DNA from: an uncultured virus (IMG/VR IMGVR_UViG_3300032282_003039)
DNA: 36,462 nucleotides
Strand: one strand, 5' to 3'
Virus record (IMG/VR): IMGVR_UViG_3300032282_003039
Span: 1-36,462 of that record
The position numbers were made by a program, and so were the translations under genes. Below the pieces are notes generated by a model that ran no database searches, had not been told where the DNA came from, and saw nothing but the letters and a program-made list of their open reading frames with translations. Of the stretch, positions 5,868-25,659 are shown one piece after another; within the stretch, counting starts at the first letter, position 1; every line of letters begins with the position of its first letter.

Positions 5868-5870
5868 TAA

Positions 5871-5909: not shown

Positions 5910-5911
5910 AC

Positions 5912-8206: not shown

Positions 8207-9396
8207 TACATATCTCCCGAATCAATGTTAATAACTGAACCTACCTTTGGTATAGCGTGTGGATTATCTAAAATACACCATAAAACAGGGCAATTCCACT
8301 CACCACCCCAATCATCACCGACACAACCATCTGTCAAAACAATAGCACATACAGGAGTAATGCTATTCTTTTTCATGTATTTAGTGATACATTTTGGTGA
8401 TGTTCCCCCGCCACCTTTGGGCTTGGTTGATGTAGTCATTTTATCCCACTCACCCAATCCATAAACCTCATGCCCCGCAACTTCTGTATCCCAATAAAGT
8501 AAATCTACCAATTCGGGGTTTACATTTTCCATCATCTTGGAAACTTCACTAATGAATCGGTTTAAAATACGACCACCAATCGACCCTGAAGTATCAATAG
8601 CAACCACTACCCTACCCATTGTTTCGCTATATGTTGATGGCATATACATATCATGTTGCAACCATCTGCGATTAGGTTTTCGCCAAGTGCTATCGTCTTT
8701 TCCACTACATACTGCACTAACATACTCAGCGAGGGCGGTTTTCCAATCGACTTTTGCACTCATCAAATCGGTAAATGATCTATCAACTTTACCCCCAACC
8801 TTACCCGCTAAAATTGCACCCTGACGAATTGCTTGGTCTATCTCTTTTTCCAATTCTGCTTTTTCCTCGTCAGTCATCTCGTCTGCGTTTTCCCAATCAT
8901 GCTCATCTAGTTTAAACACACCATCACCCCCGCCACCATAACCATATTCGTCAGGCAATAATGCAAATACATCTGCGGTGCTTAAACCTTTAAACTTATG
9001 ATTGATTAGCCCACCTTCAGGCACGACACAAAATCGTTCGCCCTTGTTGTCGGTGTGTTCTTTACCCTCGTCATCAATCTCTAAATTGATAACATAATCA
9101 CAAGCCATATTAGTTTTGGTGCGGTTGATCTTGGCTAAGTGTTTCCATGTAAGCAAGTGTCTATACATCTTGTGTTTTGCCTCATGCAAAATCAAACCCC
9201 GCAACTCATTATCTTTTAGACTTTCAACAAAAGCACGACCATATTCAATATCCCGCCCATTGGTTCTAGCGGTGTCTAAATCATCAATCACTTTGGATTC
9301 ACCCACCATAATTAGACTTGTGTATGCCACAAATCCCTTATGCCTCATAATTTCGGTGTGTGCTTTTTCAATGCGTTGTTCTGCGGTTAGTTTCAT
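8206..9396 (-). CDS. HExxH metallopeptidase-like + VWA domain protein (DUF2201-like)
   Basis: TARTNG; LILHEAKH; NMACDYVIN; MIDAS motif AIDTSGS; GGGT; IVLTDG. Start reassigned to MKLTAEQRI at 9396. Confidence 0.88.
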   Translation of the reverse strand: MKLTAEQRIEKAHTEIMRHKGFVAYTSLIMVGESKVIDDLDTARTNGRDIEYGRAFVESLKDNELRGLILHEAKHKMYRHLLTWKHLAKINRTKTNMACDYVINLEIDDEGKEHTDNKGERFCVVPEGGLINHKFKGLSTADVFALLPDEYGYGGGGDGVFKLDEHDWENADEMTDEEKAELEKEIDQAIRQGAILAGKVGGKVDRSFTDLMSAKVDWKTALAEYVSAVCSGKDDSTWRKPNRRWLQHDMYMPSTYSETMGRVVVAIDTSGSIGGRILNRFISEVSKMMENVNPELVDLLYWDTEVAGHEVYGLGEWDKMTTSTKPKGGGGTSPKCITKYMKKNSITPVCAIVLTDGCVGDDWGGEWNCPVLWCILDNPHAIPKVGSVINIDSGDM

Positions 9397-9397
9397 G

Positions 9398-9790
9398 TTA
9401 AACCTTTCCCCAATAGCCATATACCATCTTGTTTGAGCAATCCCAAATATCATTTGGAATACCATCTATTACTGCCACATAATGCCCCGCTTGTTGGGCT
9501 ATTATTGCACCCTTAGGCATATCACTACACCTTGCCTTACGACCTTCAAACTTTGGTGCTGAGTGCCATATCCACCCATACTTTTTCAAAACATCTGAAT
9601 ACACATCTTTATAAATCCCATCTCTTGCGGATTTTTTAAAACCTTTATTTTTATTTGCTTGGGCTAATTCGTTATAAGCGGTTTGATAATCCAAACCTAA
9701 AGCGATTGATAATGCTCTTGCCCCGCAATCCCCCGCCCTACCCTTATAACCCGCTTTAGACCTACCACCATCATTAAATATAAAATTCAT
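9398..9790 (-). CDS. phage protein with possible Cys/His catalytic dyad
   Basis: NDGGR..AG.KG.AGDCGARA...GHYVAVIDG..D.WD; the peptidase-like function is an inference. Confidence 0.65.
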   Translation of the reverse strand: MNFIFNDGGRSKAGYKGRAGDCGARALSIALGLDYQTAYNELAQANKNKGFKKSARDGIYKDVYSDVLKKYGWIWHSAPKFEGRKARCSDMPKGAIIAQQAGHYVAVIDGIPNDIWDCSNKMVYGYWGKV

Positions 9791-9931
9791 AATTGCCTTT
9801 CATTGAATCCATAATATATTTTCGCCCACCTTGCTTGGAAAATATATTAGGGGAAACCCTAGTTTTGATATGGTAATGTTTCACAATATGAAATAGTTTC
9901 ATGTCAATAGGTGTTTACCCTAATATGTAGT

Positions 9932-10108
9932 TTAAACATTCTCCTCATAACTTAGGTATGGTTTATATGGTTTTAATGCTTTACCGAAAGCGTAATACAT
10001 TGGGCTAATTTCGTCAATTAAATTTTGTTTTTCTGCTTTAGTAATTGCCTTAAATAGTTTATGTTGCAAACTGTTTTCATATTCCAATTCAATTCTGCTT
10101 TTAATCAT
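9932..10108 (-). CDS. small hypothetical protein (58 aa)
   Basis: Manual translation MIKSRIELEYENSLQHKLFKAITK...EENV; preceded by GAGGGAGTTTAAACATT. Confidence 0.55.
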   Translation of the reverse strand: MIKSRIELEYENSLQHKLFKAITKAEKQNLIDEISPMYYAFGKALKPYKPYLSYEENV

Positions 10109-10125
10109 AATGTTTAAACTCCCTC

Positions 10126-11202
10126 TTAACTAGCAAACATATAATTATTATCGGTAGCCCACTTAATAAATTCCTTATTCGTGCCTACTATTAACTTTTT
10201 ATTGGTTCGCATAACTGATGTAGCAAATAGCCCTTGTGATTCTTTAGACAATCTAGCCATGTATTTTAACCAAAATGGCATTGTATCTTTTTCTACTTGT
10301 TGGACTGCGGAATAGACTAACATACATACTGCACTTGGGCTTTTAGGAATAGGTGTTTTAATCGGGTCTTTAATGATGCTTTCCCAATCAGGTAATTGAT
10401 CACCTAACTGAACAATACTTAGCGTGTCATATGTTGCTCTATCGCCAATCGTTCCCTTTAATGCGTGTCCTAAAATATCCATGCCTAATGGTTTTGCTTT
10501 TTTAATAATATCTGATGCTTTTTCTAAACTGCGTGGTGTCGTAAAAGATGGGCGGGGTGTGCGAGGGTCATAAATATATTCGTTATCTTTATGGTTGTCG
10601 TAATCTTCAAAAGATGCCAACATCTGCGGAAACTGTTTGACTGTTTGCAATATTTCAGGGGCTATCCCATTGTCAAGAGCATAATTTTCTAACCACTCAT
10701 CTGCGGTTGGTTTACGCACTTTCACTACGCACAATCTGTTTCTAGCGTGTGGCGGTAACATATCACCAATGCCTTCTGTTGCTAGGTTTGTAGTAGCGAA
10801 TACAATACTGCCTTTGGGTAATTCGTAAACCCCTAACTTGCGTTCTAGCATCAATCTTAAACAAGCGTTCATAACTGCTTTTGATGCCTTGCCAATCTCA
10901 TCAAGCATTAAAACAATGGGCTTATCGTGGTGAAAACCAAATTCCTCATTGGGAATAAAACTACAAACTTCGGTGTCGTTTAAACTTCTTATCTTCGGCA
11001 CTAGAAAATCCCCTACATCTTTAGTAGTCATATCACCATAACAGTAATGGTATCTATCGCCTAGTTTATCTCTAAGGGTTTTTAAGATTGATGATTTACC
11101 AATGCCCATTTCGCCCTGTGCTAAAACTGTGGTGTGCGTTCCAACTGCTAAAATAAGGTCTGCGGTTTGTTGAAGTGAAATTGATTTATATAAGTTTGAC
11201 AT
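10126..11202 (-). CDS. MoxR-like AAA+ ATPase
   Basis: Walker A GEMGIGKS; Walker B LMLDE; sensor I ATTN; NR arginine finger; TPRS sensor II; VWA partner gene nearby. Confidence 0.9.
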   Translation of the reverse strand: MSNLYKSISLQQTADLILAVGTHTTVLAQGEMGIGKSSILKTLRDKLGDRYHYCYGDMTTKDVGDFLVPKIRSLNDTEVCSFIPNEEFGFHHDKPIVLMLDEIGKASKAVMNACLRLMLERKLGVYELPKGSIVFATTNLATEGIGDMLPPHARNRLCVVKVRKPTADEWLENYALDNGIAPEILQTVKQFPQMLASFEDYDNHKDNEYIYDPRTPRPSFTTPRSLEKASDIIKKAKPLGMDILGHALKGTIGDRATYDTLSIVQLGDQLPDWESIIKDPIKTPIPKSPSAVCMLVYSAVQQVEKDTMPFWLKYMARLSKESQGLFATSVMRTNKKLIVGTNKEFIKWATDNNYMFAS

Positions 11203-11223
11203 TCTGTTGCCTTTATTGGTTGG

Positions 11224-11322
11224 TTATAAAGATAAAACTACAAATAAGAGTAAACCTAAAAATATAATAAGTAAAGCGGTTAATGCAAAAACTTCAAGGG
11301 TCGATTCGGTTTCATATTGCAT
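11224..11322 (-). CDS. single-pass membrane peptide (32 aa)
   Basis: Manual translation MQYETESTLEVFALTALLIIFLGLLLFVVLSL; preceded by GAGGGGGTTTAAAC. Confidence 0.55.
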   Translation of the reverse strand: MQYETESTLEVFALTALLIIFLGLLLFVVLSL

Positions 11323-11327
11323 AGCGT

Positions 11328-11528
11328 TTAAACCCCCTCTCTAAGTATGTTTAAATAGATTTCATTAACTGCCATTGTGATGCCATCAACTCGATCTTTA
11401 CCATATCGCCTACACATAATCTTATAGGTTCTATAATCGTCATCTTCTGCATTGATGTCGCTAATGATGTTCACAATTTCATAAAACTGTAATTCGGTTA
11501 GCGTTGGTTTTTCGTGGTCTTTAATCAT
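11328..11528 (-). CDS. hypothetical early protein
   Basis: 66 aa; GGGAG-TTTAAAC-ATG start context. Confidence 0.7.
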   Translation of the reverse strand: MIKDHEKPTLTELQFYEIVNIISDINAEDDDYRTYKIMCRRYGKDRVDGITMAVNEIYLNILREGV

Positions 11529-11742
11529 GTTTAAACTCCCTAAAATTAAAATCTTTTATCCATTCAACCCGAACAGTAGCGGGGTCAATCCACTTGGAAA
11601 GCATCTTAAATTCAGGGCTTTCAAGCGGGTAGGATACAAGTAAATGCCCCGCAAATCTAAACCCGCTTTCACCCACTTTGTCTAGTCGGTAAAAATGTGG
11701 TTCAGTTTTGCGGTGGTGATACAACTTTACAACTTTAACCAT
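11521..11742 (-). CDS. hypothetical early protein
   Basis: 73 aa; GTTTAAAC just before the ATG. Confidence 0.65.
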   Translation of the reverse strand: MVKVVKLYHHRKTEPHFYRLDKVGESGFRFAGHLLVSYPLESPEFKMLSKWIDPATVRVEWIKDFNFREFKHD

Positions 11743-11747
11743 ACTGT

Positions 11748-11930
11748 TTAAACTCTGCCATCTAGTAATTCGTTTAACCGAATTTGATACAATTCCTCTA
11801 CCGATTCAAACTCGAATGAATCAGCACCATAAATATAAAAAGTTTCACCCAATAGCGAATGAGCCTCTTTTACACTATCGCATTGTTCTAACTCATATAA
11901 AATTTTATTAAAAGGGTTTGGCATATCCAT
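11748..11930 (-). CDS. acidic hypothetical early protein
   Basis: 60 aa, 13 D/E versus 4 K/R; GAGGGT-GTTTAAAC-ATG start context. Confidence 0.7.
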   Translation of the reverse strand: MDMPNPFNKILYELEQCDSVKEAHSLLGETFYIYGADSFEFESVEELYQIRLNELLDGRV

Positions 11931-11932
11931 GT

Positions 11933-12154
11933 TTAAACACCCTCGCTATAAATTTCGGATTCGTCAGGGTCAATCGTATAGTCGCAACTATCAAGCCAAT
12001 CATTAAACCCGCACCTGTAAGCGGTTGGGTCTAACTCTTTTAATACTCTGCTAGGGTCAAACTCTATCCCCGCTATATTGATCGGGGAATAGAGTTCGTC
12101 TAACATTTCGTCATATAAATCTAAAGCGGTTGATTCGTCTATAAATTCAAGCAT
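11933..12154 (-). CDS. highly acidic early protein (candidate DNA mimic)
   Basis: 73 aa, 20 D/E versus 3 K/R; YDEMLDE...S.VLKE.DPTAYRCGFNDW; SD GAGG. Confidence 0.7.
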   Translation of the reverse strand: MLEFIDESTALDLYDEMLDELYSPINIAGIEFDPSRVLKELDPTAYRCGFNDWLDSCDYTIDPDESEIYSEGV

Positions 12155-12158
12155 AATT

Positions 12159-12276
12159 AGCCTCTTAGGTTGTAATGGTTTACTGCCCCCGCTTGTCTAG
12201 GCGGGTCTGTATTGGTTCACATATTGAGCCTCTTAGGTTGTAATGGTTTACTGCCCCCGCTTTTCTAGGCGGGTTT
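12159..12276. repeat. tandem duplication, 50-bp unit with 68-bp period, containing a hairpin and RBS
   Basis: AGCCTCTTAGGTTGTAATGGTTTACTGCCCCCGCTT(G/T)TCTAGGCGGGT at 12159 and 12227. Confidence 0.9.
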
Positions 12277-12321
12277 ATGGTTCGCTTTTGTGTGGTTGTG
12301 TGTCCTTTCATGGTTCGTGGT

Positions 12322-12495
12322 CTAGGTATTGTTTAAACATTCCCCAACTTTTACTGCGTGAGCCATATTTAGGATATGCTCAAATAATCCATCTAATTTA
12401 GGCGATGCGTAGCCATGTAGTGCAAGGTCTAACAGGGCAATATCATCATTGTATAAGGTTAATGATATGGTGATGGGTGTGTCGTGGTTAATCAT
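12322..12495 (-). CDS. small hypothetical protein (57 aa)
   Basis: Manual translation MINHDTPITISLTLYNDDIALLDLALHGY...; preceded by GGGAGTATTTAAAC. Confidence 0.55.
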   Translation of the reverse strand: MINHDTPITISLTLYNDDIALLDLALHGYASPKLDGLFEHILNMAHAVKVGECLNNT

Positions 12496-12497
12496 GT

Positions 12498-12659
12498 TTA
12501 AATACTCCCTGTTGAAATTAAGCCATTCAAATAATCACCCGCCACTTTTATGTCGTTGTTTTCTTTTCTAAAACTGCCTTCGTAGATTGCTCGGTTTTCG
12601 TCAATCTCAAGCCAATCTAATATCCTACAAAATGCCTCAAATTCCTTTTTGGTCATCAT
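12498..12659 (-). CDS. small hypothetical protein (53 aa)
   Basis: Manual translation MMTKKEFEAFCRILDWLEIDENRAIYEG...; preceded by GAGGGAGTGTTTAAAC. Confidence 0.6.
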   Translation of the reverse strand: MMTKKEFEAFCRILDWLEIDENRAIYEGSFRKENNDIKVAGDYLNGLISTGSI

Positions 12660-12673
12660 GTTTAAACACTCCC

Positions 12674-12901
12674 TCATTTAGTTAATTCGTCAAAAAAATC
12701 TTGGGGCTTTTCTGTTGCCACAACACCATCAAGCCATTTATTTATATGTCGGGTTGTAGTGTTTGACCACTTCATAGCGGTTTTATAATATTCGTTGTCA
12801 TTAAACGAGTGATAAGCAACAGGGGTTTTGTAACTGAATAGCACCTTCCCATTGTTGGTTATGACTTCATTCATGTTTTTAGAGATTGGGTTTAATTGCA
12901 T
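12674..12901 (-). CDS. small early phage protein
   Basis: VLFSYKTPVA...KWSNTTTRHINKWL pattern, recalled from phage early regions; SD AAGGA. Confidence 0.75.
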   Translation of the reverse strand: MQLNPISKNMNEVITNNGKVLFSYKTPVAYHSFNDNEYYKTAMKWSNTTTRHINKWLDGVVATEKPQDFFDELTK

Positions 12902-12913
12902 GATGTTGATTCC

Positions 12914-13114
12914 TTAAAATATGGTTTTAAAAAAGGGTGTTTCGGGTTGTTTTAATTCTACCGAATAACCTAATTGTTTTGCAAGGTTTATTGTGTTCGG
13001 TAATAGGGTTTTAGTGTTGGCTATTTTGGCGAACACTTGGGCGGGTTCATTCACAGGGTAATAAACTGTATTCCCATAAACTTGCCTTTGCTCTATCAAA
13101 ATTGTTTGATTCAT
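12914..13114 (-). CDS. hypothetical early protein
   Basis: VYGN..YYPVN..A..FA.IA.TKTL pattern; SD AAGGA. Confidence 0.7.
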   Translation of the reverse strand: MNQTILIEQRQVYGNTVYYPVNEPAQVFAKIANTKTLLPNTINLAKQLGYSVELKQPETPFFKTIF

Positions 13115-13126
13115 TTTGGTTTTTCC

Positions 13127-13345
13127 TTAATCGTTTAGTGGAATGTTGTTGGCTTCTAAAATCTTACATAATAAATTTTCTATAATCAACACCTTTCGCC
13201 CTGTCGCTGAAATGTCTAATTCATCAGCAATAAAAAACAATTTATTCTGTTCGTTATTGTATTTGATGGCATTGTCAAGGGTTAAAAACTTGTCAAGGTT
13301 TTGGGTTGTGTTGATGGTCTTAATGAATTGGTCTGATGGTTGCAT
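13127..13345 (-). CDS. hypothetical early protein
   Basis: 72-aa ORF; GTTTAAAC before the ATG. Confidence 0.6.
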   Translation of the reverse strand: MQPSDQFIKTINTTQNLDKFLTLDNAIKYNNEQNKLFFIADELDISATGRKVLIIENLLCKILEANNIPLND

Positions 13346-13383
13346 GGTGTTTAAACAATGCGGGGTTTCCCCCGCACCCTTTC

Positions 13384-13584
13384 TTATATGGTTGGTTTGC
13401 CTAGCATTGTGGCTAATTGGTTATAAACTGCGGTTTTATTGCCCTTATATCCCAATTCGCTTTTGATAATAGAGTAAGCGGTTCTACCTCTATTCATGCG
13501 TAGCCCTTTAATTTCAAGTTTTAAACCTGAGAGCAAAGTAAAATAGCGAAATAACTCGATTTTTTCGGGGGTGTCTATCATCAT
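13384..13584 (-). CDS. hypothetical early protein
   Basis: L.SGLKLEIKG.RM.RGRTAY.IIK.ELG.KG pattern; SD AAGGA. Confidence 0.7.
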   Translation of the reverse strand: MMIDTPEKIELFRYFTLLSGLKLEIKGLRMNRGRTAYSIIKSELGYKGNKTAVYNQLATMLGKPTI

Positions 13585-13795
13585 GTTATCTATTCCTTTT
13601 TAGGTTAGTGTTTCAATATATGGCTAATTGCCACAATTAAATTAGATCAAACTGTGAAGATTATGTAAAGGTTTTTTATATATCGAATAGTTATAAAACA
13701 ACTGTTTTTTATACTAAGGGTTTACCCTCGAAAATCGAGATCGTGGTGTTGGTGAGGTAAGGGTAGCCCGAACATAGAAAAGGGCTATAAACCCC
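13585..13795 (-). promoter_or_regulatory. early promoter/leader block, copy 2
   Basis: Shares GGTTAGTGTTTCAATATATGGC..AATTGCCA, GGGTTTACCCT..AAAATCGAGATCG and GGGCTATAAA with 15015-15250. Confidence 0.65.
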
Positions 13796-13888
13796 CTTAA
13801 AACTCGCCCAAATTGATTACGGGTTTATGGGCTTGGAACAAAGGCAATTTTTTGGCGGGGCGGGGCTTGTTTAAACAATGCAAGGGGC

Positions 13889-13915
13889 AAAAAAAATCGG
13901 GGCATAGCCCCGATT
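13889..13915 (-). terminator. Rho-independent terminator
   Basis: Minus strand reads AATCGGGGC-TAT-GCCCCGATT followed by a T run, downstream of 13935..14312. Confidence 0.8.
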
Positions 13916-13934
13916 GGTTTAAACACTTGGTAGG

Positions 13935-14312
13935 TCAGAATGAATCGGGGTTGCAATCCCTGTTGTAATCTGCGAAATATTCCGCATCGCTGACCCAATC
14001 ATTAGCCTCACAAGCCTCACCATTTTTAGCGGGGGTTGATTTGGGTAGTAAAATCACCCATTCCCATATAGGGGCTTCAGTCCCGCATGAAAATTGACCT
14101 ACGCAAAAACAAACAGGGAAGGGGTAATCAAGATTAGGGCGGGAAGTGTTATAACCCGCACTATCAGCAACCCGCCAAGAGGTTGTTCGGGGGTTATGGC
14201 GGGGGAGATTAACTAGCCCCTCAATGGTTGCCCCTTGCGAATGAGGGCGGGGGATATCTTCGACAAACTCGCCCTTTTGTGATCTGCTTACATCATATTT
14301 AAAGACTTTCAT
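13935..14312 (-). CDS. hypothetical early protein
   Basis: 125-aa ORF with SD GGAG, followed by a terminator. Confidence 0.7.
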   Translation of the reverse strand: MKVFKYDVSRSQKGEFVEDIPRPHSQGATIEGLVNLPRHNPRTTSWRVADSAGYNTSRPNLDYPFPVCFCVGQFSCGTEAPIWEWVILLPKSTPAKNGEACEANDWVSDAEYFADYNRDCNPDSF

Positions 14313-14366
14313 TTTAGAATCTCCAATTAGTTTAAACAGGGGGCGGGATTGCCCCCCGCTTGGTTT

Positions 14367-15014
14367 TTATTCCTCGCCCTCGCCATCTTCGGGGGTGTAT
14401 TCACTCCACATTTTGCCATGACCTAGAGGGCATTTGGGAACCGCTATTTTTAACCATTTGCTAGATGTGCGTAAAGCATATCCACACTTTAGACACTTAC
14501 AAGCAAGATTGCGGGTGGTTTGCTTTTTATAGCGGGTTGAAAGGGTGGAGTGTGGATACTCACCCTCTGCCTCTACCCATTGGTTAATAAGGGCTAGTAG
14601 CCACTCACCCGCATTGGTAGAGGTGAGTTTACCCTCTAGTCCTACTGCCCTAGCACAATCACCAAAAACCTTGTTATGCCCCTCTTTATTGCCGACAGTA
14701 GCGTGACATAACTCATGCACTAAAACATCAATAACCCTAGCGGAATCGGCTAGGCTTGGCACAATCATAATTTGAAAGGTGTTATCGCTAGACATAGAGG
14801 GCGAGTAGCACTCGCCAAGTGTGAATCGCTTTTGATGGGCTTTTGTGTGAATCCCGCCACTAGCCAAAGAACAAGAGAGGCGAATATTGGCGGGGATTGT
14901 GTAGCCCTTTGAAGCAAACAAGGGGCGGAGATACTTATTGGTAATGAGGGTTAGCCATGCCTCACGATTGGCATTGGTAGCCGATTGGCTAGGGGTGTAG
15001 GTTAGTAGTAGCAT
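14367..15014 (-). CDS. SprT-like zinc metalloprotease-family protein with C-terminal zinc ribbon
   Basis: LGEC; VLVHELCHA...GHNKVF; C-terminal CLKCGY...CPLGH. Start reassigned to ATG 15014 (SD AGGA; the sequence upstream is the duplicated leader). Confidence 0.8.
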   Translation of the reverse strand: MLLLTYTPSQSATNANREAWLTLITNKYLRPLFASKGYTIPANIRLSCSLASGGIHTKAHQKRFTLGECYSPSMSSDNTFQIMIVPSLADSARVIDVLVHELCHATVGNKEGHNKVFGDCARAVGLEGKLTSTNAGEWLLALINQWVEAEGEYPHSTLSTRYKKQTTRNLACKCLKCGYALRTSSKWLKIAVPKCPLGHGKMWSEYTPEDGEGEE

Positions 15015-15280
15015 TTTTTCTATTCCTAATATGGTTAGTGTTTCAATATATGGCGAAATTGCCATACCTCAAAAATAATAGGAATGTTGTTTAAACTCTA
15101 TTAGGGGAAACCCTTAGTTTCTTTATTCTTTTTAGTTATGGGTTTGGGTTTCTATATACTTAGGGGTTTACCCTTACAAAATCGAGATCGCATAGGGCTT
15201 GATACTAACCCATCAACTGAGGGCAAAATGGCATGGCGGGGCTATAAAGGGCATTGGCGGGGTTTCATATTGTGGAATAG
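15015..15280 (-). promoter_or_regulatory. early promoter/leader block, copy 1, with palindromic operators
   Basis: Homologous to 13585-13795; AGGGGAAACCCT at 15103, AGGGGTTTACCCT at 15162, TTTCATATTGTGGAA at 15263. Confidence 0.65.
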
Positions 15281-15369
15281 CGTTTATTCGGTTTAGTGTT
15301 GTATTTATGCCACATCACCACTCAGGCTCTCGCACCCGCTTAGTTTAAACGCACTCAGCGTATCAGCCA

Positions 15370-15529
15370 TGTTGCACCGCACCATTGTTGCACCGCACAA
15401 AGACCATGATGCCATTGTGGTTATGTTGCACCGCACAAAGACCATGATGCCATTGTGGTTATGTTGCACCGCACCAATCAGCCATGTTGCACCGCACCAT
15501 TGTTGCACCGCACCATTGTTGCACCGCAC
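15370..15529. repeat. array of seven TGTTGCACCGCAC direct repeats
   Basis: Copies start at 15370, 15386, 15424, 15462, 15485, 15501 and 15517; includes an exact 38-bp tandem duplication. Confidence 0.92.
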
Positions 15530-15534
15530 CATCA

Positions 15535-15591
15535 TGCACCAATGTGGTGCATCATGCACCAAATTGGGGAACAATGCACCAATTTGGTGCA
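15535..15591. promoter_or_regulatory. three NtrC-consensus boxes at 20-bp spacing
   Basis: TGCACCA-atg-TGGTGCA (15535), imperfect TGCACCAAATTGGGGAA (15555) and TGCACCA-att-TGGTGCA (15575); established NtrC consensus TGCACCA-N3-TGGTGCA. Confidence 0.65.
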
Positions 15592-15594
15592 TAG

Positions 15595-15626
15595 GGGGTG
15601 TTGTAAAAAAGCAACACCCCTTTTTG
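15595..15626. other. inverted repeat GGGGTGTTG-N8-CAACACCCC followed by a T run (operator or plus-strand terminator)
   Basis: Perfect 9-bp inverted arms seen directly. Confidence 0.5.
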
Positions 15627-15751
15627 AGCCTCTCGACAAGGCTTAGGTCTGGGGGCCCCACAAAGCTCAAGTTTTTATATTTTTTCTGTAATTTTTTTTA
15701 ATTGAGAATTATTCCTATTTAAAGACCAACTATCAAGCACTTAGGCGCGAT

Positions 15752-15871
<120 letters not shown>

Positions 15872-15895
15872 TTTAAAATATATTTTTGGATTTAA

Positions 15896-15925
15896 GGCGC
15901 CAAACATATAAAGTTTGCATTAGTT
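15896..15925 (+). promoter_or_regulatory. putative phage late promoter (variant)
   Basis: GGCGCC-N15-GCATTAGTT, 5 nt before the ATG at 15931. Confidence 0.65.
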
Positions 15926-15930
15926 GATAT

Positions 15931-16239
15931 ATGAACAATTATGTTTACCAAATTGCCGGAGCTTTAGAAAGCGCCCATGGAAAACTTCAAGGTTTTCGGG
16001 TTATGGTATGTAATGTTCTATATTTTGATACGGTAGATGTTCCATCAAGCGTTCTTGATAAAGAAACCATCAAATTCTTAGAGTTCCGTCTCAAATTGAC
16101 CAAAGACGCATTGGATATCCAAAAACTGCCTTACAAAATCCAACGCGCAATCAGAGAGCCGTTAGGGCATTTCTTAGACGATTGGGTCCTTAAAAACTTT
16201 TATGGCGATACTATCAAATCAAAAAGTACTAACTCTTGA
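15931..16239 (+). CDS. hypothetical protein, first gene of the packaging operon
   Basis: 102 aa; ATG lies directly after the promoter with no SD, so possibly leaderless. Small terminase by position only. Confidence 0.65.
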   Translation: MNNYVYQIAGALESAHGKLQGFRVMVCNVLYFDTVDVPSSVLDKETIKFLEFRLKLTKDALDIQKLPYKIQRAIREPLGHFLDDWVLKNFYGDTIKSKSTNS

Positions 16240-17194
16240 TTATTGGAAACCGGCAAGCAATTTAAAGCCAGGAGATTACGTTTTTGACAAAGACGGCAAA
16301 ATAGTCCAAATCAAACTAGTTCAAGAGTACCGCGCCCAAAACTGCTATGAGGTTATGTTTAACGACTACCTGACCATAGCAGGAGATCAGCACTTAGGTT
16401 TCTTGGTAGAAACCCCCAGATGCCGAACCAGACAAGCTACGTACAAAGGCGTTAAAAAATTTAGACGGCCACTACAGTCAAAAACCGTCTCAGCCATTAG
16501 CGACTCCCAGCTAAGGGATAAAAGAAACCGCCTTACTCTATCCGTCCCCACTACAAAACCACTAACTTTCCCAGAGCAAGACCTTCCGGTACCGCCGTTT
16601 TTGTTTGGCTTTTGGTTTTTTAACCAAAGAAAGAACAAAACAATGGCGGCGCCTCCCGGAATGTCAAAAGAAATCTATGAGCAGTTTAAAGATTTTGGTT
16701 ACCAGATAACAGAATCTAAAAAACTTTACTCAGGAGAGCGGGAATTTTCCGTTTTTCCTACGATAGAATCCCATTTACTGCCAAACATTCCAAACAGAAT
16801 CCCAAACAATTACCTTTTAGCGTCAACAGAACAAAGAATTCAGCTTTTGCGCGGAATTTTATACGCAAAATCCAGGCAGTACTCTAAAAGTAAAGACAAA
16901 TTTAGGCTTACAACCAAGCACTACGCCATTATTTTGCAGCTTCAGTGTCTTTTAGAGTCACTTGGCCACAAACTTTTTGTGTTTTACGACACCAATAAAA
17001 AGTACTACACCATTTTCTTTAAATCTAGGTTACAATTGGTAAGTAATCAAACATCTCCTCGAATAAAAGTACACCATACAAGGCGGTATATTAAGAAAAT
17101 TGAACCAATTGCGTCTCAAATGTGCGTTCATATTGAAACAACAGGATCAGACAACACTATTCTCGTAGGAGAAGGATTTATTGCATGCCGTTAA
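16202..17194 (+). CDS. free-standing degenerate intein (Hint + LAGLIDADG-like), no exteins
   Basis: N-terminal Hint block (KVLT..YWK...LKPGDYVFDKDGK...YEV.F.D); LPVPPFLFG and YLLAS.EQR.QLLRGI LAGLIDADG-flanking motifs; C-terminal RYIKKIE...VHIE....LVGEGFI splicing block. Confidence 0.8.
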   Translation: MAILSNQKVLTLDYWKPASNLKPGDYVFDKDGKIVQIKLVQEYRAQNCYEVMFNDYLTIAGDQHLGFLVETPRCRTRQATYKGVKKFRRPLQSKTVSAISDSQLRDKRNRLTLSVPTTKPLTFPEQDLPVPPFLFGFWFFNQRKNKTMAAPPGMSKEIYEQFKDFGYQITESKKLYSGEREFSVFPTIESHLLPNIPNRIPNNYLLASTEQRIQLLRGILYAKSRQYSKSKDKFRLTTKHYAIILQLQCLLESLGHKLFVFYDTNKKYYTIFFKSRLQLVSNQTSPRIKVHHTRRYIKKIEPIASQMCVHIETTGSDNTILVGEGFIACR

Positions 17195-18630
17195 ATGAAA
17201 AACAAATATCCATACTTAAAAAATTTGCAGACGCCAACCAACACTGGCCCAAACAGCAGCTTGAAGCTGCGATATGGCAAGTTAAATGGGCACTACAAGC
17301 GCTTCCTCATCAAAAAGAGCCTGAGGATGGTGAATATGACACTTTTCTTATGTTGGCTGGGCGCGGATCGGGCAAAACGCACACGGCGTCCCATTGGATT
17401 GGGATTCGTGCTTGGAAATATGATAATACTCGGTGGCTTGTTACTGCTCCAACCTCAAATGACATTCGTGCGACCTGTTTTGAAGGAGATTCAGGACTCC
17501 TTAACATTCTCCCACCCAGCATCATCCGCGATTACAATAAGTCCTTATTCGAGATTACTCTTACCAATGGGTCAATTATCCAAGGAATCCCAGGATCGGA
17601 GCCCGAGCGATATCGCGGAAAGCAATATCATGGAGCTTGGTTCGATGAGCTGTGTGCTTTTGACTACATGGACGACGCCTATGATGGCGTCCAGTTTACC
17701 CTGCGTCTTAAAGACCCACGAATACGAAGGGTGCAACAGATTGTCACCACTACCCCTAAACCTAGAGAATTAATTGTAGATTTAGCAGAAGGTAAAATTG
17801 GCGGCGATGTGTACATGGTTAACGCCTCGTCATACGACAACAGATTAAACCTTTCTGAAACGTTTTTTAAACAGCTTGAGACGTACGATGGTACCGACAT
17901 TGGTAGACAGGAAATCTATGGAGAAATCCTTGACCCTGAATCGGCCGGCATTATCAAACGTAAGCAATTCCGCATGTGGCCGGCTAGTAAACCAACTCCT
18001 GTCTTGGAATATGTGATAGCATCATACGACCCAGCCACCAGCGAAAAAACAATGAACGACCCAACAGCGTGTACCGTTTGGGGTGTGTTTGAAAGAGAAG
18101 ACGCTGGGACTTGTGTCATACTGCTAGACAGTTGGGACGCACATCTGTCTTACCCTGAATTGCGCCGCAAAGTAATTGACGACTTTAAAGAGGTAGTCTA
18201 CGGGGCAGACAACGAGTTTGGCAAAGGCCGTAAAGCCGACCTTATTTTGATGGAAGATAAGTCAGCCGGTATTTCTTTGATTCAAGAGTTGCAAGGTTCT
18301 GGAGTGCCGGTCAGGGGCTACAACCCAGGAAGAGCCGACAAAGTACAGCGTTTGAACATTGTGGCTCCGCTGGTAGCTAAGGGCAAAGTCTACATCCCAG
18401 AAGACCCAAAACAAAGAGATACGTTTGCAGACTGGACTAAACGGTTCATACGGCAGGTATGTAGCTTCCCAGAAGCTCAAGGCCATGATGACTACGTTGA
18501 TTCTCTTTCCCAGGCTTTGCGGGTGCTTAGGGACTCAGGATGGCTTCAGCTAGACCCACTACCCGCCCGAGATTATGACTATGCGGACGACGATGTCAGA
18601 AAACGATTTGCTAATCCTTACGCCCAGTAG
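17185..18630 (+). CDS. terL: terminase large subunit
   Basis: Walker A AGRGSGKT; VTAPT; Walker B AWFDE; TTTP coupling motif; nuclease motifs SYDPA..D, EDKSAG and HDDYVDS. Confidence 0.95.
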   Translation: MPLNEKQISILKKFADANQHWPKQQLEAAIWQVKWALQALPHQKEPEDGEYDTFLMLAGRGSGKTHTASHWIGIRAWKYDNTRWLVTAPTSNDIRATCFEGDSGLLNILPPSIIRDYNKSLFEITLTNGSIIQGIPGSEPERYRGKQYHGAWFDELCAFDYMDDAYDGVQFTLRLKDPRIRRVQQIVTTTPKPRELIVDLAEGKIGGDVYMVNASSYDNRLNLSETFFKQLETYDGTDIGRQEIYGEILDPESAGIIKRKQFRMWPASKPTPVLEYVIASYDPATSEKTMNDPTACTVWGVFEREDAGTCVILLDSWDAHLSYPELRRKVIDDFKEVVYGADNEFGKGRKADLILMEDKSAGISLIQELQGSGVPVRGYNPGRADKVQRLNIVAPLVAKGKVYIPEDPKQRDTFADWTKRFIRQVCSFPEAQGHDDYVDSLSQALRVLRDSGWLQLDPLPARDYDYADDDVRKRFANPYAQ

Positions 18631-18660
18631 GGCGGAAATGTCTTATTTTTTGCATTAGTA
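18631..18660 (+). promoter_or_regulatory. putative phage late promoter
   Basis: GGCGGA-N15-GCATTAGTA upstream of the portal gene. Confidence 0.8.
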
Positions 18661-18696
18661 TAAATAGGAATCCAATAACCCCCTTTAGAACATTCT

Positions 18697-21480
18697 ATGG
18701 CCAATCCCCAAATACCCATTCAAGACGGCGCAAATTTGCCTTCTCTTGAACGCGAAGAAACAATTCATACTGCCGAAAAGCAAGATGAAGATTTGGAAGC
18801 GTATGCCGATTCATTAGGCCTTCCCTCAGAAGAATTAGAACAAGAAGTTATTGAACTAGATGATGGTTCAGTAATAGTAAATTTCCAAGAAAAACAAGGT
18901 CCACAAAAAAATCCAGAATTTTATTCTAACCTAGCTGAAGAATTTGATGAAGGAAACCTTCAAAGTTTGGCAGAAGAATATTTGGATTATATTGATGTAG
19001 ACCGCGAATCAAGAAAGCAAAGAGATAAACAATATGAAGAAGGATTACGTAGAACTGGACTTGGTAAAGATGCGCCGGGTGGAGCAACGTTTGACGGTGC
19101 TAGTAAAGTGGTACATCCAGTTATGGCAGAAGCTTGTGTCGATTTTGCGGCCTCTGCTGCAAAAGAGTTACTCCCGCCTGACGGACTTGTTAAGTCTAGT
19201 ATCAAAGGCCAAGCTGACAAAATAAAAGAAAGAACCGCCGATCGTAAAGTTACATTTATGAATTGGCAGTTAACAGAACAAATTCCAGAGTACCGCGATG
19301 AAATGGAACAGTTGTTAACCCAACTACCCCTTGGCGGATCTCAGTTTCTTAAATGGCGCTATGATTCAGAACAATGCCGACCAACATGCGAATGGGTGGC
19401 AATTGACAACATTCTGCTACCATGGGCTTCAACAAATTTTTACACATCCCCGCGTGTAACAGAAGTACAAGACATTACCGAAGATACGTACCAACAGCGT
19501 ATTGAACAAGGTATTTATCGTGATGTTGATTCAGCATACACTTCTGATGCTCCGTTAAACGACCAAACTCAATCCGAAAAAGCCAACGCAAAAATTGAAG
19601 GCAAGGACGAACCATCTAAAAATATCGATGGATTGCGCCGCATTTACGAAATTACTTGTTTTATGCGTTTGGAAGATGACCCAGAAACAGAAGGTCGACG
19701 TGCACCATACATTTTGACAATTGATGAGTCCAGTAGTAAAGTATTGGCTTTATATCGTAACTGGGAGGCTGGTGATGAAAAGCTTGAAAAGATGGACTGG
19801 TATGTGGAGTTCAAATTCATCCCTTGGCGTGGCGCTTACGCTATTGGGTTGCCTCACCTCATTGGTGGGCTTAGTGCTGCTCTTACCGGTTCTCTCCGCG
19901 CTTTGTTGGACGCTGCGCACATTAATAACAGTCAAACGCTTCTTAAACTTAAAGGCGGCCGCATTGGTGGGCAGTCTGACAGGATCGAACCGACCCAAGT
20001 AGTTGAAATTGAAGGGGCGCCCGGAGTAGATGATGTTCGTAAGATTGCTATGGCTATGCCATTCAATCCCCCGTCTTCCGTACTGTTTAATTTACTAGGT
20101 TGGTTAACTGACGCTGCTAAAGGTGTGGTAACTACTGCCGAAGAAAAGATTGGCGAAGCTAACAATCAAATGCCGGTGGGAACTACACAGGCACTTATTG
20201 AACAAGGCGCCAAAGTGTTTTCAAGCATTCATGCTCGCATGCACCGCAGCCAAGCTAAATCGCTTAAAATTATTTCGCGTATCAATCATTGGTATTTGGA
20301 AGAAATGGACAATCAGTCCGGCGAAGAAATTAAAATTCGGGACTTTGCTTCTAACAATGACGTGCGCCCGGTTTCTGACCCCAACATTTTTTCTGAAACA
20401 CAGCGTCTTGCGCAAAATCAAGCACTGTTACAAATGGCGACATCCGCACCACCTGGAATGTTTAACATTCGGGCAGTGTATCAACGCATTTTAGAACAAC
20501 TTAAAATTCCAGCCTTAAATGAAGTGTTACCAAATCCTTTGGGTGCTAGTGAATCTAACCCTGCGCTAGAAAACGTTGCTATGACTATGGGGCGTCCGGC
20601 GGCAGCATATCCTGATCAAGACCACGTAGCCCACATTAAAGTGCATTTGGAATACGCTTTTAATCCGGCGTATGGCGCAAACCCTGTAATTGGCCCATCA
20701 TTTGCCCCGCATGCTTTAGAGCATATTAAACAACATTTAACGCTTCATTATTTACAATCTATGCGAGCTTACGTGGCTCAAGCAGCAGGCGGTAAAGATG
20801 CGTTTGATTTGCATCGTGAAAAACCGTTAGACTTAGAAGCACAACAAGCTTTGGCTATAGCTTCTCAAATGGTTGGTGAAGATGCCAAAAACAATTTAAG
20901 CCAATATGTACAACAAATTCAACAATTGGCTCAAAAAGTACAACAAGCTCAACAACAGCAACAACAAAACCTTGCGGCTCAAGATCCAACAGCTCAAGTC
21001 ATTCTTAAAACTCAAATGGCTGAAACGCAGCGCAAACAAGCTGAAGCCCAAGCTAAAATGCAGTTGGAAAACCAAAAAGATGCTCAAGAACATCAACTTA
21101 GAATTGCTGAACTACAACAAAAAGTTGCAGAATTACAAGCTAAATACACAACCCAAACCAATATTGATAACCAGCGTAATGCTACCGATATTGCAATGGC
21201 CAACATTAATAACGCAGCTAAAGAGCGTATTGCTATGATCCAAGCCAAAGTTGGTTTAGATCAACAACAAACTCAGCTAGAACATGAGCAAAATATATCG
21301 GCAACCGAAGCTATTCGAGCATCTGAACAAGATATTAGACAGCATGGCATTGCGTTAAGAGAAGCGGCTTTTCAGCAACAAGCACAAACAACACAACAAC
21401 AAGCCCAGCAACAGCATGAGGCTGCTTTAGCGCAACAACAAGCAGCAACACAACAACCAACCCCAACAACAGGAGCATAA
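18697..21480 (+). CDS. portal protein with long Gln-rich coiled-coil C-terminus
   Basis: Directly after TerL; FYSNLAE, GAS.VVHP.MAEA, YAIGL.HLIGG and PVSDPNIFS motifs; P22-like length. Confidence 0.88.
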   Translation: MANPQIPIQDGANLPSLEREETIHTAEKQDEDLEAYADSLGLPSEELEQEVIELDDGSVIVNFQEKQGPQKNPEFYSNLAEEFDEGNLQSLAEEYLDYIDVDRESRKQRDKQYEEGLRRTGLGKDAPGGATFDGASKVVHPVMAEACVDFAASAAKELLPPDGLVKSSIKGQADKIKERTADRKVTFMNWQLTEQIPEYRDEMEQLLTQLPLGGSQFLKWRYDSEQCRPTCEWVAIDNILLPWASTNFYTSPRVTEVQDITEDTYQQRIEQGIYRDVDSAYTSDAPLNDQTQSEKANAKIEGKDEPSKNIDGLRRIYEITCFMRLEDDPETEGRRAPYILTIDESSSKVLALYRNWEAGDEKLEKMDWYVEFKFIPWRGAYAIGLPHLIGGLSAALTGSLRALLDAAHINNSQTLLKLKGGRIGGQSDRIEPTQVVEIEGAPGVDDVRKIAMAMPFNPPSSVLFNLLGWLTDAAKGVVTTAEEKIGEANNQMPVGTTQALIEQGAKVFSSIHARMHRSQAKSLKIISRINHWYLEEMDNQSGEEIKIRDFASNNDVRPVSDPNIFSETQRLAQNQALLQMATSAPPGMFNIRAVYQRILEQLKIPALNEVLPNPLGASESNPALENVAMTMGRPAAAYPDQDHVAHIKVHLEYAFNPAYGANPVIGPSFAPHALEHIKQHLTLHYLQSMRAYVAQAAGGKDAFDLHREKPLDLEAQQALAIASQMVGEDAKNNLSQYVQQIQQLAQKVQQAQQQQQQNLAAQDPTAQVILKTQMAETQRKQAEAQAKMQLENQKDAQEHQLRIAELQQKVAELQAKYTTQTNIDNQRNATDIAMANINNAAKERIAMIQAKVGLDQQQTQLEHEQNISATEAIRASEQDIRQHGIALREAAFQQQAQTTQQQAQQQHEAALAQQQAATQQPTPTTGA

Positions 21481-21481
21481 T

Positions 21482-21703
21482 ATGGCCGATAATAATTTAA
21501 AAGGCTTTCGTCAGACATACCAGGAAACTGGTAAATTATCCAGCGGCGGCGGCCCTGGTGAAAAAACCATTGACGCTGGCGCATCAGGCAGCCACCGCGA
21601 CGACAACTGGAAAATTGGCGCAAAACAAGCAAAAATGAAAAATGCCAAGCCAATTGGCCCAGGAAAGAACTTAAAAGACATAAAAGGCGGTAATTTTTAT
21701 TAA
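21482..21703 (+). CDS. small basic/Gly-rich hypothetical protein
   Basis: 73 aa; SD AGGAG. Confidence 0.65.
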   Translation: MADNNLKGFRQTYQETGKLSSGGGPGEKTIDAGASGSHRDDNWKIGAKQAKMKNAKPIGPGKNLKDIKGGNFY

Positions 21704-21708
21704 TTTAG

Positions 21709-21738
21709 GGCGGATTTCTTTGTAATTTTGCATTAGTA
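21709..21738 (+). promoter_or_regulatory. putative phage late promoter
   Basis: GGCGGA-N15-GCATTAGTA, 5 nt before the ATG at 21744. Confidence 0.8.
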
Positions 21739-21743
21739 AGATT

Positions 21744-21935
21744 ATGAAAGACTTTATTTCCGAAATTATTTCTCGAACGAGAGATGAACAAGCAAAACTA
21801 GCGGTTACTCTTACAGCTGGCAGTAATGTAAATTCTTTTGAAGACTACCAAAGATTAGTTGGTAGGTTTGAAGGGTTTAAGCAAACACTGGACATTATTG
21901 ATGAAATTTTAAGAGAGGACGACGAAGAATCGTAA
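21744..21935 (+). CDS. small head-module protein
   Basis: 63 aa with a ..G...SFEDYQRLVG...G motif; immediately precedes the GroES-like gene. Confidence 0.7.
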   Translation: MKDFISEIISRTRDEQAKLAVTLTAGSNVNSFEDYQRLVGRFEGFKQTLDIIDEILREDDEES

Positions 21936-21957
21936 GATTCAAGAAAGGAGTGCCGAT

Positions 21958-22398
21958 ATGGCATTTGATGTATCGCAAAAAGAAGACCTGGATTTACGAA
22001 GTGAGGAAGAATGTTTTCCAAACATAGATCCCGGAATTGAAGTGGCCGGAGACCGTGTTTTAGTTCAACTAAGACGTGAAAAGGCAAAGAGCAAGGGTGG
22101 CATCATTCTCGTAGATGAAACCCGACAAACGTTACGTTTCAATGAAACAGTTGCTAAGGTACGCCAAATTGGTCCTTTAGCATATAAATCGCCGGATAAT
22201 TTAGAATCTTGGCCCGAAGGCCCTTGGTGTAATGAAGGCGATTTAGTCAGAACCATTAAATATGGTGGTGATCGTTTTGTTGTTAATCCAGATGACGATG
22301 GTGCCCCAGTGGTATTCATCACAATCCAGGCCCGTGAAATCATTTCGCGCATTAAGTCGTTTGAATATGCGCAAAAAATGAAAGCGTTTGTAGACTAA
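21958..22398 (+). CDS. groES: GroES/Cpn10 co-chaperonin homologue
   Basis: GDRVLV...KSKGGIIL mobile loop; V..IGP; GDLV...KYGG. Confidence 0.88.
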   Translation: MAFDVSQKEDLDLRSEEECFPNIDPGIEVAGDRVLVQLRREKAKSKGGIILVDETRQTLRFNETVAKVRQIGPLAYKSPDNLESWPEGPWCNEGDLVRTIKYGGDRFVVNPDDDGAPVVFITIQAREIISRIKSFEYAQKMKAFVD

Positions 22399-22413
22399 TT
22401 TTGAAAGAAAATT

Positions 22414-23412: not shown

Positions 23413-23417
23413 TTAAA

Positions 23418-23972
23418 ATGGCAAATACAAGAATTAAACGTGACCTAGATGACCGCTTAGCGGATCGGGTACAAGAGACAAAAGAACGGATTGCAGCAGA
23501 AGATCCAGATAATAAATCAAAGCGCGAACGCGCAGAAGCGTTCAGGGATAAGTGGCAAAATAGCGCATTGCCCGACCTTCCGGAAGGTATTATTCCGGGT
23601 ATGCACTTGTGCTGGTTATCCACCACAAATAATTACGACAGTATCGACAAACGTATGGCGTTGGGTTATGAGCCAGTTAAAGCTTCGGAATTAGGTAAAG
23701 GCTTTGAAGGACTAGGTAAAATGAGCTCGGGCAAGTTTGAAGGCTGTGTTAGCTGTAACGAGATGGTTCTCTTTAAGTTACCAGAAGAAATCTATCAAGA
23801 AGTGATGCGCATGATGCACCTCGAGGATCCCCTTGAACATCAACGCAATATCACCGCCAACGTTCGGAGCACTGCTCAAGAAGGTAAGGGCGGAAGATCT
23901 ATTCTTGAAGGTGGAGTCTTGGAAATGGAAAAAGAGGCCGCAAAGGCGAATAGTAATATTCGTTTTCAATAA
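23418..23972 (+). CDS. head-module hypothetical protein
   Basis: 184 aa with SD GAGGA; upstream of the capsid genes. Confidence 0.7.
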   Translation: MANTRIKRDLDDRLADRVQETKERIAAEDPDNKSKRERAEAFRDKWQNSALPDLPEGIIPGMHLCWLSTTNNYDSIDKRMALGYEPVKASELGKGFEGLGKMSSGKFEGCVSCNEMVLFKLPEEIYQEVMRMMHLEDPLEHQRNITANVRSTAQEGKGGRSILEGGVLEMEKEAAKANSNIRFQ

Positions 23973-23999
23973 CATTCTTCAAAAACAAAGGAATTATAA

Positions 24000-24662: not shown

Positions 24663-24685
24663 TTAACAACGAAAGGAAATAACTC

Positions 24686-25651: not shown

Positions 25652-25659
25652 ACTTTTAG

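Follow-up and report, generated by a model that had tools for sequence, protein, structure and literature searches.

Clustered PhaR-type and NtrC-type sites in the intergenic gap of an uncultured virus: a possible link to host nutrient status

Introduction

Clusters of binding sites for the cell-cycle regulator CtrA lie in gaps of about 1 kilobase (kb) or in direct terminal repeats (DTRs) of alphaproteobacterial phages. Mascolo et al. 2022 (PMC9437464) show binding and regulation experimentally and propose "lytic deferment", the timing of phage development by a host signal pathway. Here we describe a repeat array that may serve a comparable purpose in an uncultured virus, IMG/VR record IMGVR_UViG_3300032282_003039. 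The window that we analyzed is the entire record, a single contig of 36,462 base pairs (bp). The array (positions 15369-15625) comprises seven direct units resembling operators of PhaR, a regulator that senses polyhydroxybutyrate (PHB) granules, three dyad boxes of the NtrC type, and a terminator hairpin on the plus strand. We propose, with a probability of roughly 40%, that it is a cluster of sites for host PhaR and NtrC that would couple phage control to host nutrient status in cis.

The likeness to the CtrA clusters lies in the layout. In both cases, many high-scoring sites for host regulators are gathered in one noncoding gap of about 1 kb between divergent gene blocks, and relatives differ through gain and loss of sites; in one CtrA case they were likewise first seen as direct repeats. 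Timing of development by a host signal pathway is proposed here as well. The differences concern the regulators, which here would be NtrC and PhaR and would report nutrient status, whereas CtrA is a cell-cycle regulator; the combination of two site classes, rising to four or five in relatives; and the host, probably a betaproteobacterium. In addition, CtrA binding and regulation are experimental findings, whereas the sites reported here are predicted from the sequence.

The individual site types are familiar from bacteria. The NtrC consensus is given in PMC8743547 as a 17-bp dyad, TGCACCAnnnTGGTGCA. Enhancers of the glnAp2 type share this dyad with the phage array and carry it, as the array does, in several copies at whole helical turns; the phage array differs in packing three sites at 20 bp and in lacking a sigma-54 -24/-12 promoter within reach. 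For PhaR, a palindromic motif of Ralstonia eutropha, YTKNTGCRNYGCANMAR, is given in PMC12849132, and a core of Sinorhizobium meliloti, YGC-RNY-GCR, in PMC12542648. PhaR (AniA/PhbF) operators have the dyad TGC-RNY-GCA and the T-rich/A-rich flanks of the phage units. They occur in one to three copies in host promoters, in contrast to the seven tandem copies in the phage, where no overlap with a recognizable -35/-10 promoter was found.

Results

Organization of the array

The sequence TGTTGCACCGCAC occurs in seven exact copies, all on the plus strand (15370, 15386, 15424, 15462, 15485, 15501, and 15517), and allowing up to 2 mismatches yielded no further match across the 36,462-bp window. Seven copies were reached in 0/100 shuffles (mean, 0.87). 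The three boxes follow at 15535, 15555, and 15575, spaced by exactly 20 bp; this corresponds to about two helical turns and places them roughly on one face of the DNA. When boxes were counted loosely (three matches with ≤3 mismatches), their number was not above chance on its own (23/100 shuffles). The case for the boxes therefore rests on the two perfect 14-base dyads, on their adjacency, and on the relatives described below. The hexamer TGCACC, present in both units and boxes, has 12 of its 27 copies in the window between 15373 and 15591.

The hairpin that ends the array consists of GGGGTGTTG-N8-CAACACCCC (15595-15620) followed by five T residues, and the minus-strand fold is weaker and without a T-run. 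Our promoter and terminator scan missed this hairpin (15593-15625), and it was folded separately. Relatives have a hairpin with a T-run at the equivalent place, with different stem sequences. Exact motif counts and folding thus recovered the elements listed in an earlier sequence-only reading of this DNA: seven repeats, three boxes at 20-bp spacing (two of them perfect), and the GGGGTGTTG-N8-CAACACCCC element.

The array contains internal duplications, namely an exact 38-bp tandem pair (15386-15461) and an exact 37-nucleotide (nt) repeat (15362-15398 equals 15477-15513). Its GC content is 0.50, compared with 0.42 and 0.31 in the flanks. Contigs from one public sequencing run cover 14800-15786 and 15845-16300 and differ at no position, and only short pieces cross the repeats. 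The array sequence is thereby confirmed, and the number of tandem units is taken from the original assembly. In two runs from other studies labeled as freshwater, 15318-15453 and 15523-15673 were found nearly unchanged.

The direct units match the PhaR palindrome

Compared with the R. eutropha motif as quoted above, the seven units show 0, 1, 1, 1, 1, 2, and 2 mismatches, i.e., they agree at 15 to 17 of 17 positions. They are also compatible with the S. meliloti core. Each direct unit is itself a dyad, and relatives contain the perfect 5-3-5 palindrome GTTGC-ACC-GCAAC. The center triplets printed for relatives (ACC, ATT, and AAC) are all of the form R-N-Y. Among all centers in the census of relatives, 38/41 are of this type on either strand; ACC accounts for 23/41, and the exceptions are GGC (two) and ATG (one). 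Since the ATT-centered units do not contain TGCACC, the units are not merely NtrC half-sites. The sequence-only reading had suggested, with less assurance, a likeness to PhaR-bound boxes. This likeness proved sound with respect to the R. eutropha consensus and is matched by similar sites upstream of a phaZ-type and a phasin-type gene in a candidate host (see below).

The boxes match the NtrC consensus in the absence of a sigma-54 promoter

The boxes of the window are identical to TGCACCAnnnTGGTGCA, as given in the cited source, in two cases and deviate by 2 mismatches in one. To characterize the family, we built a logo from 96 boxes in 36 distinct arrangements, including the window. The search pattern left positions 7 to 11 unconstrained, and the free positions 7 and 11 turned out to be A (91/96) and T (91/96), respectively. 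Thus, the boxes of the relatives have the canonical 7-3-7 form of NtrC sites. Spacing between neighboring boxes in relatives clusters at 40 to 42 bp and at 49 to 50 bp, with a minority at 25 bp.

We found no sigma-54 promoter in 14900-16100 when GG-N10-GC was fixed and ≤3 other mismatches were allowed. This upholds the statement of the sequence-only reading that none lies nearby, and it excludes a classical NtrC enhancer role in this window. The repeat junction CCGCAC-N5-TTGCA was considered as a sigma-54 site and rejected, as the invariant GG is missing. Consensus-grade sigma-54 promoter sequences are present in the homologous zone of 8/45 relatives. These sigma-54-like sequences, TGGCACG-N4-TTGCW, often form back-to-back palindromic pairs (L010, L016, L030, L043, L047, L064, L065, and L033) and interleave with NtrC-type boxes at nonclassical distances.

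Both site types are concentrated in the homologous zone of related phages

For a census, we used loci anchored on the gene of the large terminase (TerL). IMG/VR holds at least 430 contigs with a related TerL, and the best 80 share 85 to 90% identity. Of these 80 fetched loci, 45 had ≥2.5 kb upstream, and the homologous 1.25-kb zone was scored against the rest. Near-duplicate regions were merged, leaving 36 distinct relatives, and PhaR-type matches overlapping boxes were dropped. NtrC-type boxes were found in 29/36 relatives, with 71 sites inside the zone and 2 in the 329 kb outside. PhaR-type sites were found in 20/36, with 41 inside and 47 outside (density ratio, ~6.4). Both types occur together in 16/36 relatives, and neither occurs in 3/36. 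Four complete relatives carry 6, 4, 1, and 0 boxes per genome, confined to the homologous locus. Site number, order, and spacing vary even among the closest relatives, and the arrangement of unit 7 beside box 1 recurs in relatives. In the window itself, both perfect boxes and 7 of the 14 PhaR-type matches fall within 223 bp of the gap, a skewed clustering of the kind used to recognize CtrA-type gaps.

Other dyads share the zone. Fur-box-like dyads, ATGAGAAT-N-ATTCTCAT, were detected in 31/45 relatives (e.g., L002, L009, L016, L026, L037, and L043), with 50 sites in the zone and none elsewhere. All that the window retains is a remnant with 3 mismatches (15702-15718), which overlaps the -10 of the leftward sigma-70-like promoter match. 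In L040 and L049, NtrC-type boxes alternate with GTTAGT-N4-ACTAAC palindromes at 40 to 42 bp.

A candidate host encodes both regulators

The phage is a tailed phage of the lytic type, and its host is probably a low-GC freshwater betaproteobacterium. In a search of one genome per GTDB species, TerL genes of the family were found only in one 3.1-Mb bin, "uncultured beta proteobacterium," on three contigs. The GC content of sampled bacterial loci of the bin is 0.38 to 0.43, and that of the phage is 0.416. The bin encodes ntrC (602 bits, above the curated cutoff) and a PhaR gene.

The NtrC pattern (≤1 mismatch) has 16 sites in the bin, 6 of them on phage contigs, versus 1 for the reversed control. 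Among the bacterial sites, one precedes the glnA gene of a glnA-ntrBC cluster by 84 nt (host link by co-binning and GC), and others lie upstream of a porin-PII operon and beside cobA/cysG. The equation of TGCACCA-N3-TGGTGCA with the NtrC consensus in the sequence-only reading thus stands: the dyad equals the published consensus, and boxes of the candidate host precede glnA, the PII operon, and a locus of the nitrate-assimilation type. A perfect box within the ntrC coding region of the bin (G001:C53:62507-62523) may be due to chance.

Of the sites in the bin that resemble the phage units, one precedes a PHB depolymerase gene by about 60 to 65 nt, and another precedes a phasin gene by about 60 nt and has a further site of this kind at a distance of 51 bp. 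An exact 14-mer of the unit lies upstream of the gene for phosphoenolpyruvate carboxykinase (PEPCK) in the bin; its 13-bp core is kept in the mnmE-PEPCK spacer of a related genome, where the flanks differ. Among the bin's Fur-like dyads is a double site upstream of a gene with a cupredoxin domain.

A model of nutrient-dependent control in cis

We suggest that the array is read by the host regulators as follows. Free PhaR would be available in cells that are not depositing PHB granules, and phosphorylated NtrC in cells limited for nitrogen. Both could then occupy the array and act in cis on neighboring phage promoters by repression, as a roadblock, or by architectural activation, which would couple early and late phage transcription to the carbon-storage and nitrogen status of the host. 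The leftward sigma-70-like promoter (Table 1) would transcribe through the array toward the early genes, and the bound sites would act as roadblocks. On the right, an NtrC-type box directly follows the conserved element at 15651-15681 in 6/48 distinct relatives, which would be an operator position; in the window, the boxes lie about 105 to 145 bp to the left of this element. The plus-strand terminator would close the array for rightward transcription. What the data show is the presence of the sites, their agreement with the published consensuses, their concentration at one locus across the phage family, and the use of these motifs at the cognate regulons of a candidate host; binding by the host proteins, the promoters affected, and the direction of the effect are inferred.

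If host NtrC and PhaR bind the array, an abundant family of uncultured freshwater phages would couple its development or the metabolism of its host to nitrogen limitation and carbon storage, the two variables that dominate the physiology of lake bacteria. This would widen "lytic deferment" from cell-cycle to nutrient regulators and would be the first phage use of PhaR. In open-access and bioRxiv full text, we found nothing comparable concerning NtrC or PhaR sites in phage genomes or decoys of host factors. Being small, defined, and portable, the array lends itself to direct assays in model betaproteobacteria.

Several observations weigh against this model. Within the window, no convincing -35/-10 promoter was found under the PhaR-type sites, the sole sigma-70-like match being leftward and outside the array, and the lack of a sigma-54 promoter in 14900-16100 counts in the same direction. 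Because the seven units arose by recent duplication of a single sequence, they amount within the window to roughly one independent observation. TGCACC is common to units and boxes, which are 4 to 5 bp apart in many relatives, and this also fits a single phage protein or complex. All loci of the census come from one phage family and lack phylogenetic independence. As to the host, the link between bin and phage consists of metagenomic co-binning and GC similarity, which is weak host evidence, and no CRISPR spacer match emerged when 16001-36000 was compared by blastn with 401 genomes from the bin's order; the matches were the phage contigs of the bin (three) and three others that were short, weak, and without arrays. 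The phage-unit pattern (≤2 mismatches) is not enriched in the bin (25 strand matches, 6 of them on phage contigs, versus 16 in the control), and the association with PHB genes concerns 2 of 18 distinct bacterial sites (6 inspected) plus the second nearby phasin site. Finally, GTTAGT-N4-ACTAAC is no more frequent in the candidate host than its control (5 versus 26), showing that not every repeat in the zone is a host-type site.

Sites for a phage protein

The strongest competitor of cis nutrient control, though an unlikely one in our judgment, is that the repeats serve one or more phage proteins, as iterons for the P4/D5-like primase, as pac or cosB sites for a small terminase, or as operators of an unrecognized repressor; in that case, coincidence or mimicry would explain why they resemble NtrC and PhaR sites. 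P4 ori/crr, lambda cosB, and SPP1 pac are the appropriate comparators among iteron origins and terminase repeat arrays, and the P4 alpha protein binds TGTTCACC iterons. Like these arrays, the phage locus combines short direct repeats with inverted copies, has an AT-rich zone as well as a site of the IHF type beside it, and precedes the terminase genes. Its position, 1.6 to 1.8 kb upstream of TerL and next to an AT-rich zone with a run of 27 T residues (T27), inverted arms, and an IHF site, is typical. Moreover, the direct copies and the inverted ones have TGCACC as a common core, like iterons plus operator half-sites, the fixed module of a unit followed by a box recurs in relatives, and many small early open reading frames (ORFs) have no assigned function.

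The distribution of the sites speaks against such a protein. Unlike the comparator arrays, the repeats here are missing in some close relatives that keep the primase, the terminase, and the neighboring ORFs, and the sequences match host-regulator consensuses. In the four complete relatives, box number and primase identity are 6 and 55%, 4 and 86%, 1 and 68%, and 0 and 71%; box number does not follow primase identity, and the covariation expected of iterons and their initiator is therefore not seen. Similarly, the 102-amino-acid (aa) ORF, the 330-aa ORF, and TerL (85 to 90% identical) are kept in L059 and L061, which lack both site types, and in L073, which lacks boxes. Because 3/36 distinct relatives lack both site types despite the shared TerL, the pattern is not that expected of pac or cosB. 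The sites are thus dispensable and do not track the primase, TerL, or the 102-aa or 330-aa ORF, which makes an obligatory role as origin or pac unlikely. An accessory regulator of the phage that escaped recognition is less improbable, in view of the shared TGCACC core and the recurring module of unit and box.

Neither HTH_8, the helix-turn-helix (HTH) domain of the Fis/NtrC type, nor the PhaR N-terminal domain was found in the window or in the four complete relatives (five phage records), and Pfam searches of 24 small or unknown ORFs at E values up to 1 yielded no credible DNA-binding domain. The confident model of the 102-aa ORF (predicted local distance difference test score, 83.6) is a domain of three strands and two helices with no HTH; it has no significant match in the PDB and lends no support to a role as small terminase or HTH protein. 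DnaA boxes are not enriched (ratio of 2.5 versus 7.5 in the reversed control).

The sequence-only reading had also suggested recruitment of host proteins to a leading DNA end, for which we found no support. A genome terminus at the array was considered and rejected as unsupported: the 68-kb "linear" relative breaks about 1,391 nt upstream of TerL, at the equivalent of T27, and contigs from the public run stop there too. These contig ends at the homopolymer look like assembly breaks.

Titration of the host regulators in trans

Ranked below a phage protein, and rather doubtful, is a decoy function in trans. Replicated phage sites for PhaR and NtrC, joined in relatives by those for Fur and sigma-54, would titrate the regulators away from host promoters and could, e.g., derepress PHB depolymerase and phasins to fuel the phage. 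There is precedent in the Fur titration assay, where multicopy operator sites titrate a regulator. A decoy would account for sites that are perfect or nearly so, with box copies better than those of the candidate host itself, and for a high copy number that changes fast via exact tandem duplications (0 to 6-7 per relative). Nor do the sites keep a set geometry to any promoter; a sigma-54 promoter is absent from the window, and in relatives sigma-54-like sites and boxes interleave at nonclassical distances. In contrast, the 6/48 relatives with a box directly after the promoter-like element have it at a cis-operator position, the confinement of the sites to one control region beside promoter-like elements and a terminator suggests action in cis, and complete genomes with 0 or 1 boxes would gain little from titration.

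In a broader and equally doubtful version, the variable zone would be a modular "regulator sponge" of swappable, near-perfect cassettes for global host factors that re-wires the carbon-storage, nitrogen, and iron regulons. The cassettes would be those for PhaR and NtrC here and Fur-type sites, sigma-54 dyads, and an IHF site in relatives. Tandem duplication and, subsequently, replication of the phage DNA would multiply them, and PHB depolymerase, for instance, would be unlocked to supply the phage in nutrient-poor lakes.

RNA-level and functionless explanations

A short rightward transcript with the repeats and three hairpins that ends at the terminator, acting as a small RNA or protein sponge, is very improbable. 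The strong plus-strand terminator directly after the array and the palindromic boxes, which would fold as 7-bp RNA hairpins, agree with it. However, no Rfam family was found (a search of 14900-16100 gave only subthreshold noise from microRNA models), no rightward promoter was identified upstream, and relatives keep the DNA dyads, whereas the elements vary in order, number, and spacing, contrary to what a conserved RNA structure would show. That the array is a functionless, recently expanded product of tandem duplication in a recombination-prone intergenic region would suit the exact 38-bp and 37-nt duplications and the rapid turnover among close relatives, and is hardly credible given that the two dyad types are kept with specific positions in 29 and 20 of 36 relatives and almost nowhere else.

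Genome context and elements flanking the array

The array proposed to convey nutrient control lies in the gap between two divergent gene blocks (Table 1). The ORF map and family matches place it at the start of the leftward early/replication block, as the sequence-only reading had it. The contig is incomplete (completeness of ~56% by CheckV), and complete relatives measure 63 to 68 kb. By TerL, the nearest cultured phages are Caulobacter phages (42% identity), and an uncultured spring siphovirus shares 53%.

TABLE 1 Coordinates of the array, its flanking elements, and the surrounding genes in the 36,462-bp window; mismatches of units refer to the R. eutropha PhaR motif (PMC12849132)
Feature	Position	Strand	Remarks
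C-rich border motif CTCTCGCACCCGC	15327..15341	.	Left edge of variable repeat zone; directly before arrays in many relatives
PhaR-type unit 1, ATGTTGCACCGCACCAT, core TTGC-ACC-GCA	15369..15385	+	2 mismatches; exact 13-mer copy
PhaR-type unit 2, TTGTTGCACCGCACAAA	15385..15401	+	0 mismatches
PhaR-type unit 3	15423..15439	+	1 mismatch; inside second exact 38-bp tandem copy
PhaR-type unit 4	15461..15477	+	1 mismatch
PhaR-type unit 5	15484..15500	+	2 mismatches
PhaR-type unit 6	15500..15516	+	1 mismatch
PhaR-type unit 7	15516..15532	+	1 mismatch; 2 bp (ATCA core to core) ahead of NtrC-type box 1
NtrC-type box 1, TGCACCA-ATG-TGGTGCA	15535..15551	.	Perfect
NtrC-type box 2	15555..15571	.	Left half perfect, right half TGGGGAA; 2 mismatches
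NtrC-type box 3, TGCACCA-ATT-TGGTGCA	15575..15591	.	Perfect
Terminator-like hairpin plus T5	15593..15625	+	12-bp stem, -20.1 kcal/mol, z -4.8
Family-conserved element GGGGGCCCC-ACAAAGCTCAAGTTTTTATATT, possible promoter	15651..15681	+	Right of array; ~40/48 distinct relatives aligned on GGCCCCA
Sigma-70-like promoter match	15736-15708	leftward	Promoter scan; outside array
Intergenic gap, 865 bp	15066..15930	.	Between divergent early/replication (-) and packaging/structural (+) blocks
Leftward replication/early block	1-15065	-	ORF map and family matches
P4/D5-like primase-helicase	1984-4338	-	
Sigma-70-family protein, 189 aa	5298-5867	-	Matches regions 1.2, 2, and 3 only
AAA ATPase; DUF2201/VWA protein	in leftward block	-	
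SprT-like protein	ends 15065	-	First leftward gene beside gap
Packaging/structural block	15931-36460	+	First ORF starts 15931
102-aa ORF, then 330-aa ORF	15931-17194	+	Upstream of complete TerL
Large terminase (TerL)	17185-18630	+	
Portal, capsid, collagen-like fiber proteins	rightward block	+	

The gap has no counterpart among the described phages that we compared. A blastn search of 14000-17500 against the phage collection gave zero matches, and a homologous gap is absent from Caulobacter phage RW and from the Manatee Spring siphovirus. A 1.4-kb unannotated stretch of the latter was considered as a counterpart and rejected, as it reads as coding sequence. Ahead of TerL, no recognizable small terminase was found in 15931-17194, and neither the 102-aa nor the 330-aa ORF is similar to the annotated terminase subunits of Caulobacter phage RW. 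The 330-aa ORF has weak matches to large-terminase PHROGs, and the 102-aa ORF is conserved.

The conserved element to the right of the array is possibly a promoter, and one may speculate that this GGGGCCCC...CAAGTTTTTATA(A/T) element is recognized by the sigma-70-family protein of the phage, from which region 4 is apparently absent. Further to the right lies a conserved site of IHF consensus, TATCAAGCACTTA (15731-15743); across 38 loci such sites are 13-fold enriched in the zone (39 inside versus 21 outside). It is followed by a region (15750-15872; GC, 0.305) in which 25-nt inverted arms of GTAGTACTA-type units flank T27 (15799-15825). At the equivalent place, relatives have other, phage-specific units of 8 to 9 nt (e.g., GTTGGACAA, GTCAGGGTT, and GTTGGGTCT) in inverted arrays around an AT-rich center. 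This zone looks like a specificity element, be it an origin or the operator of a phage protein, and is our candidate for the location of ori and pac.

In the rightward block, two fiber genes (27203-31231 and 33954-35549, plus strand) are very repetitive, with collagen-like and GYSG-type repeats. Between them lie two family-2 glycosyltransferase genes, one of which is fused to a methyltransferase domain.

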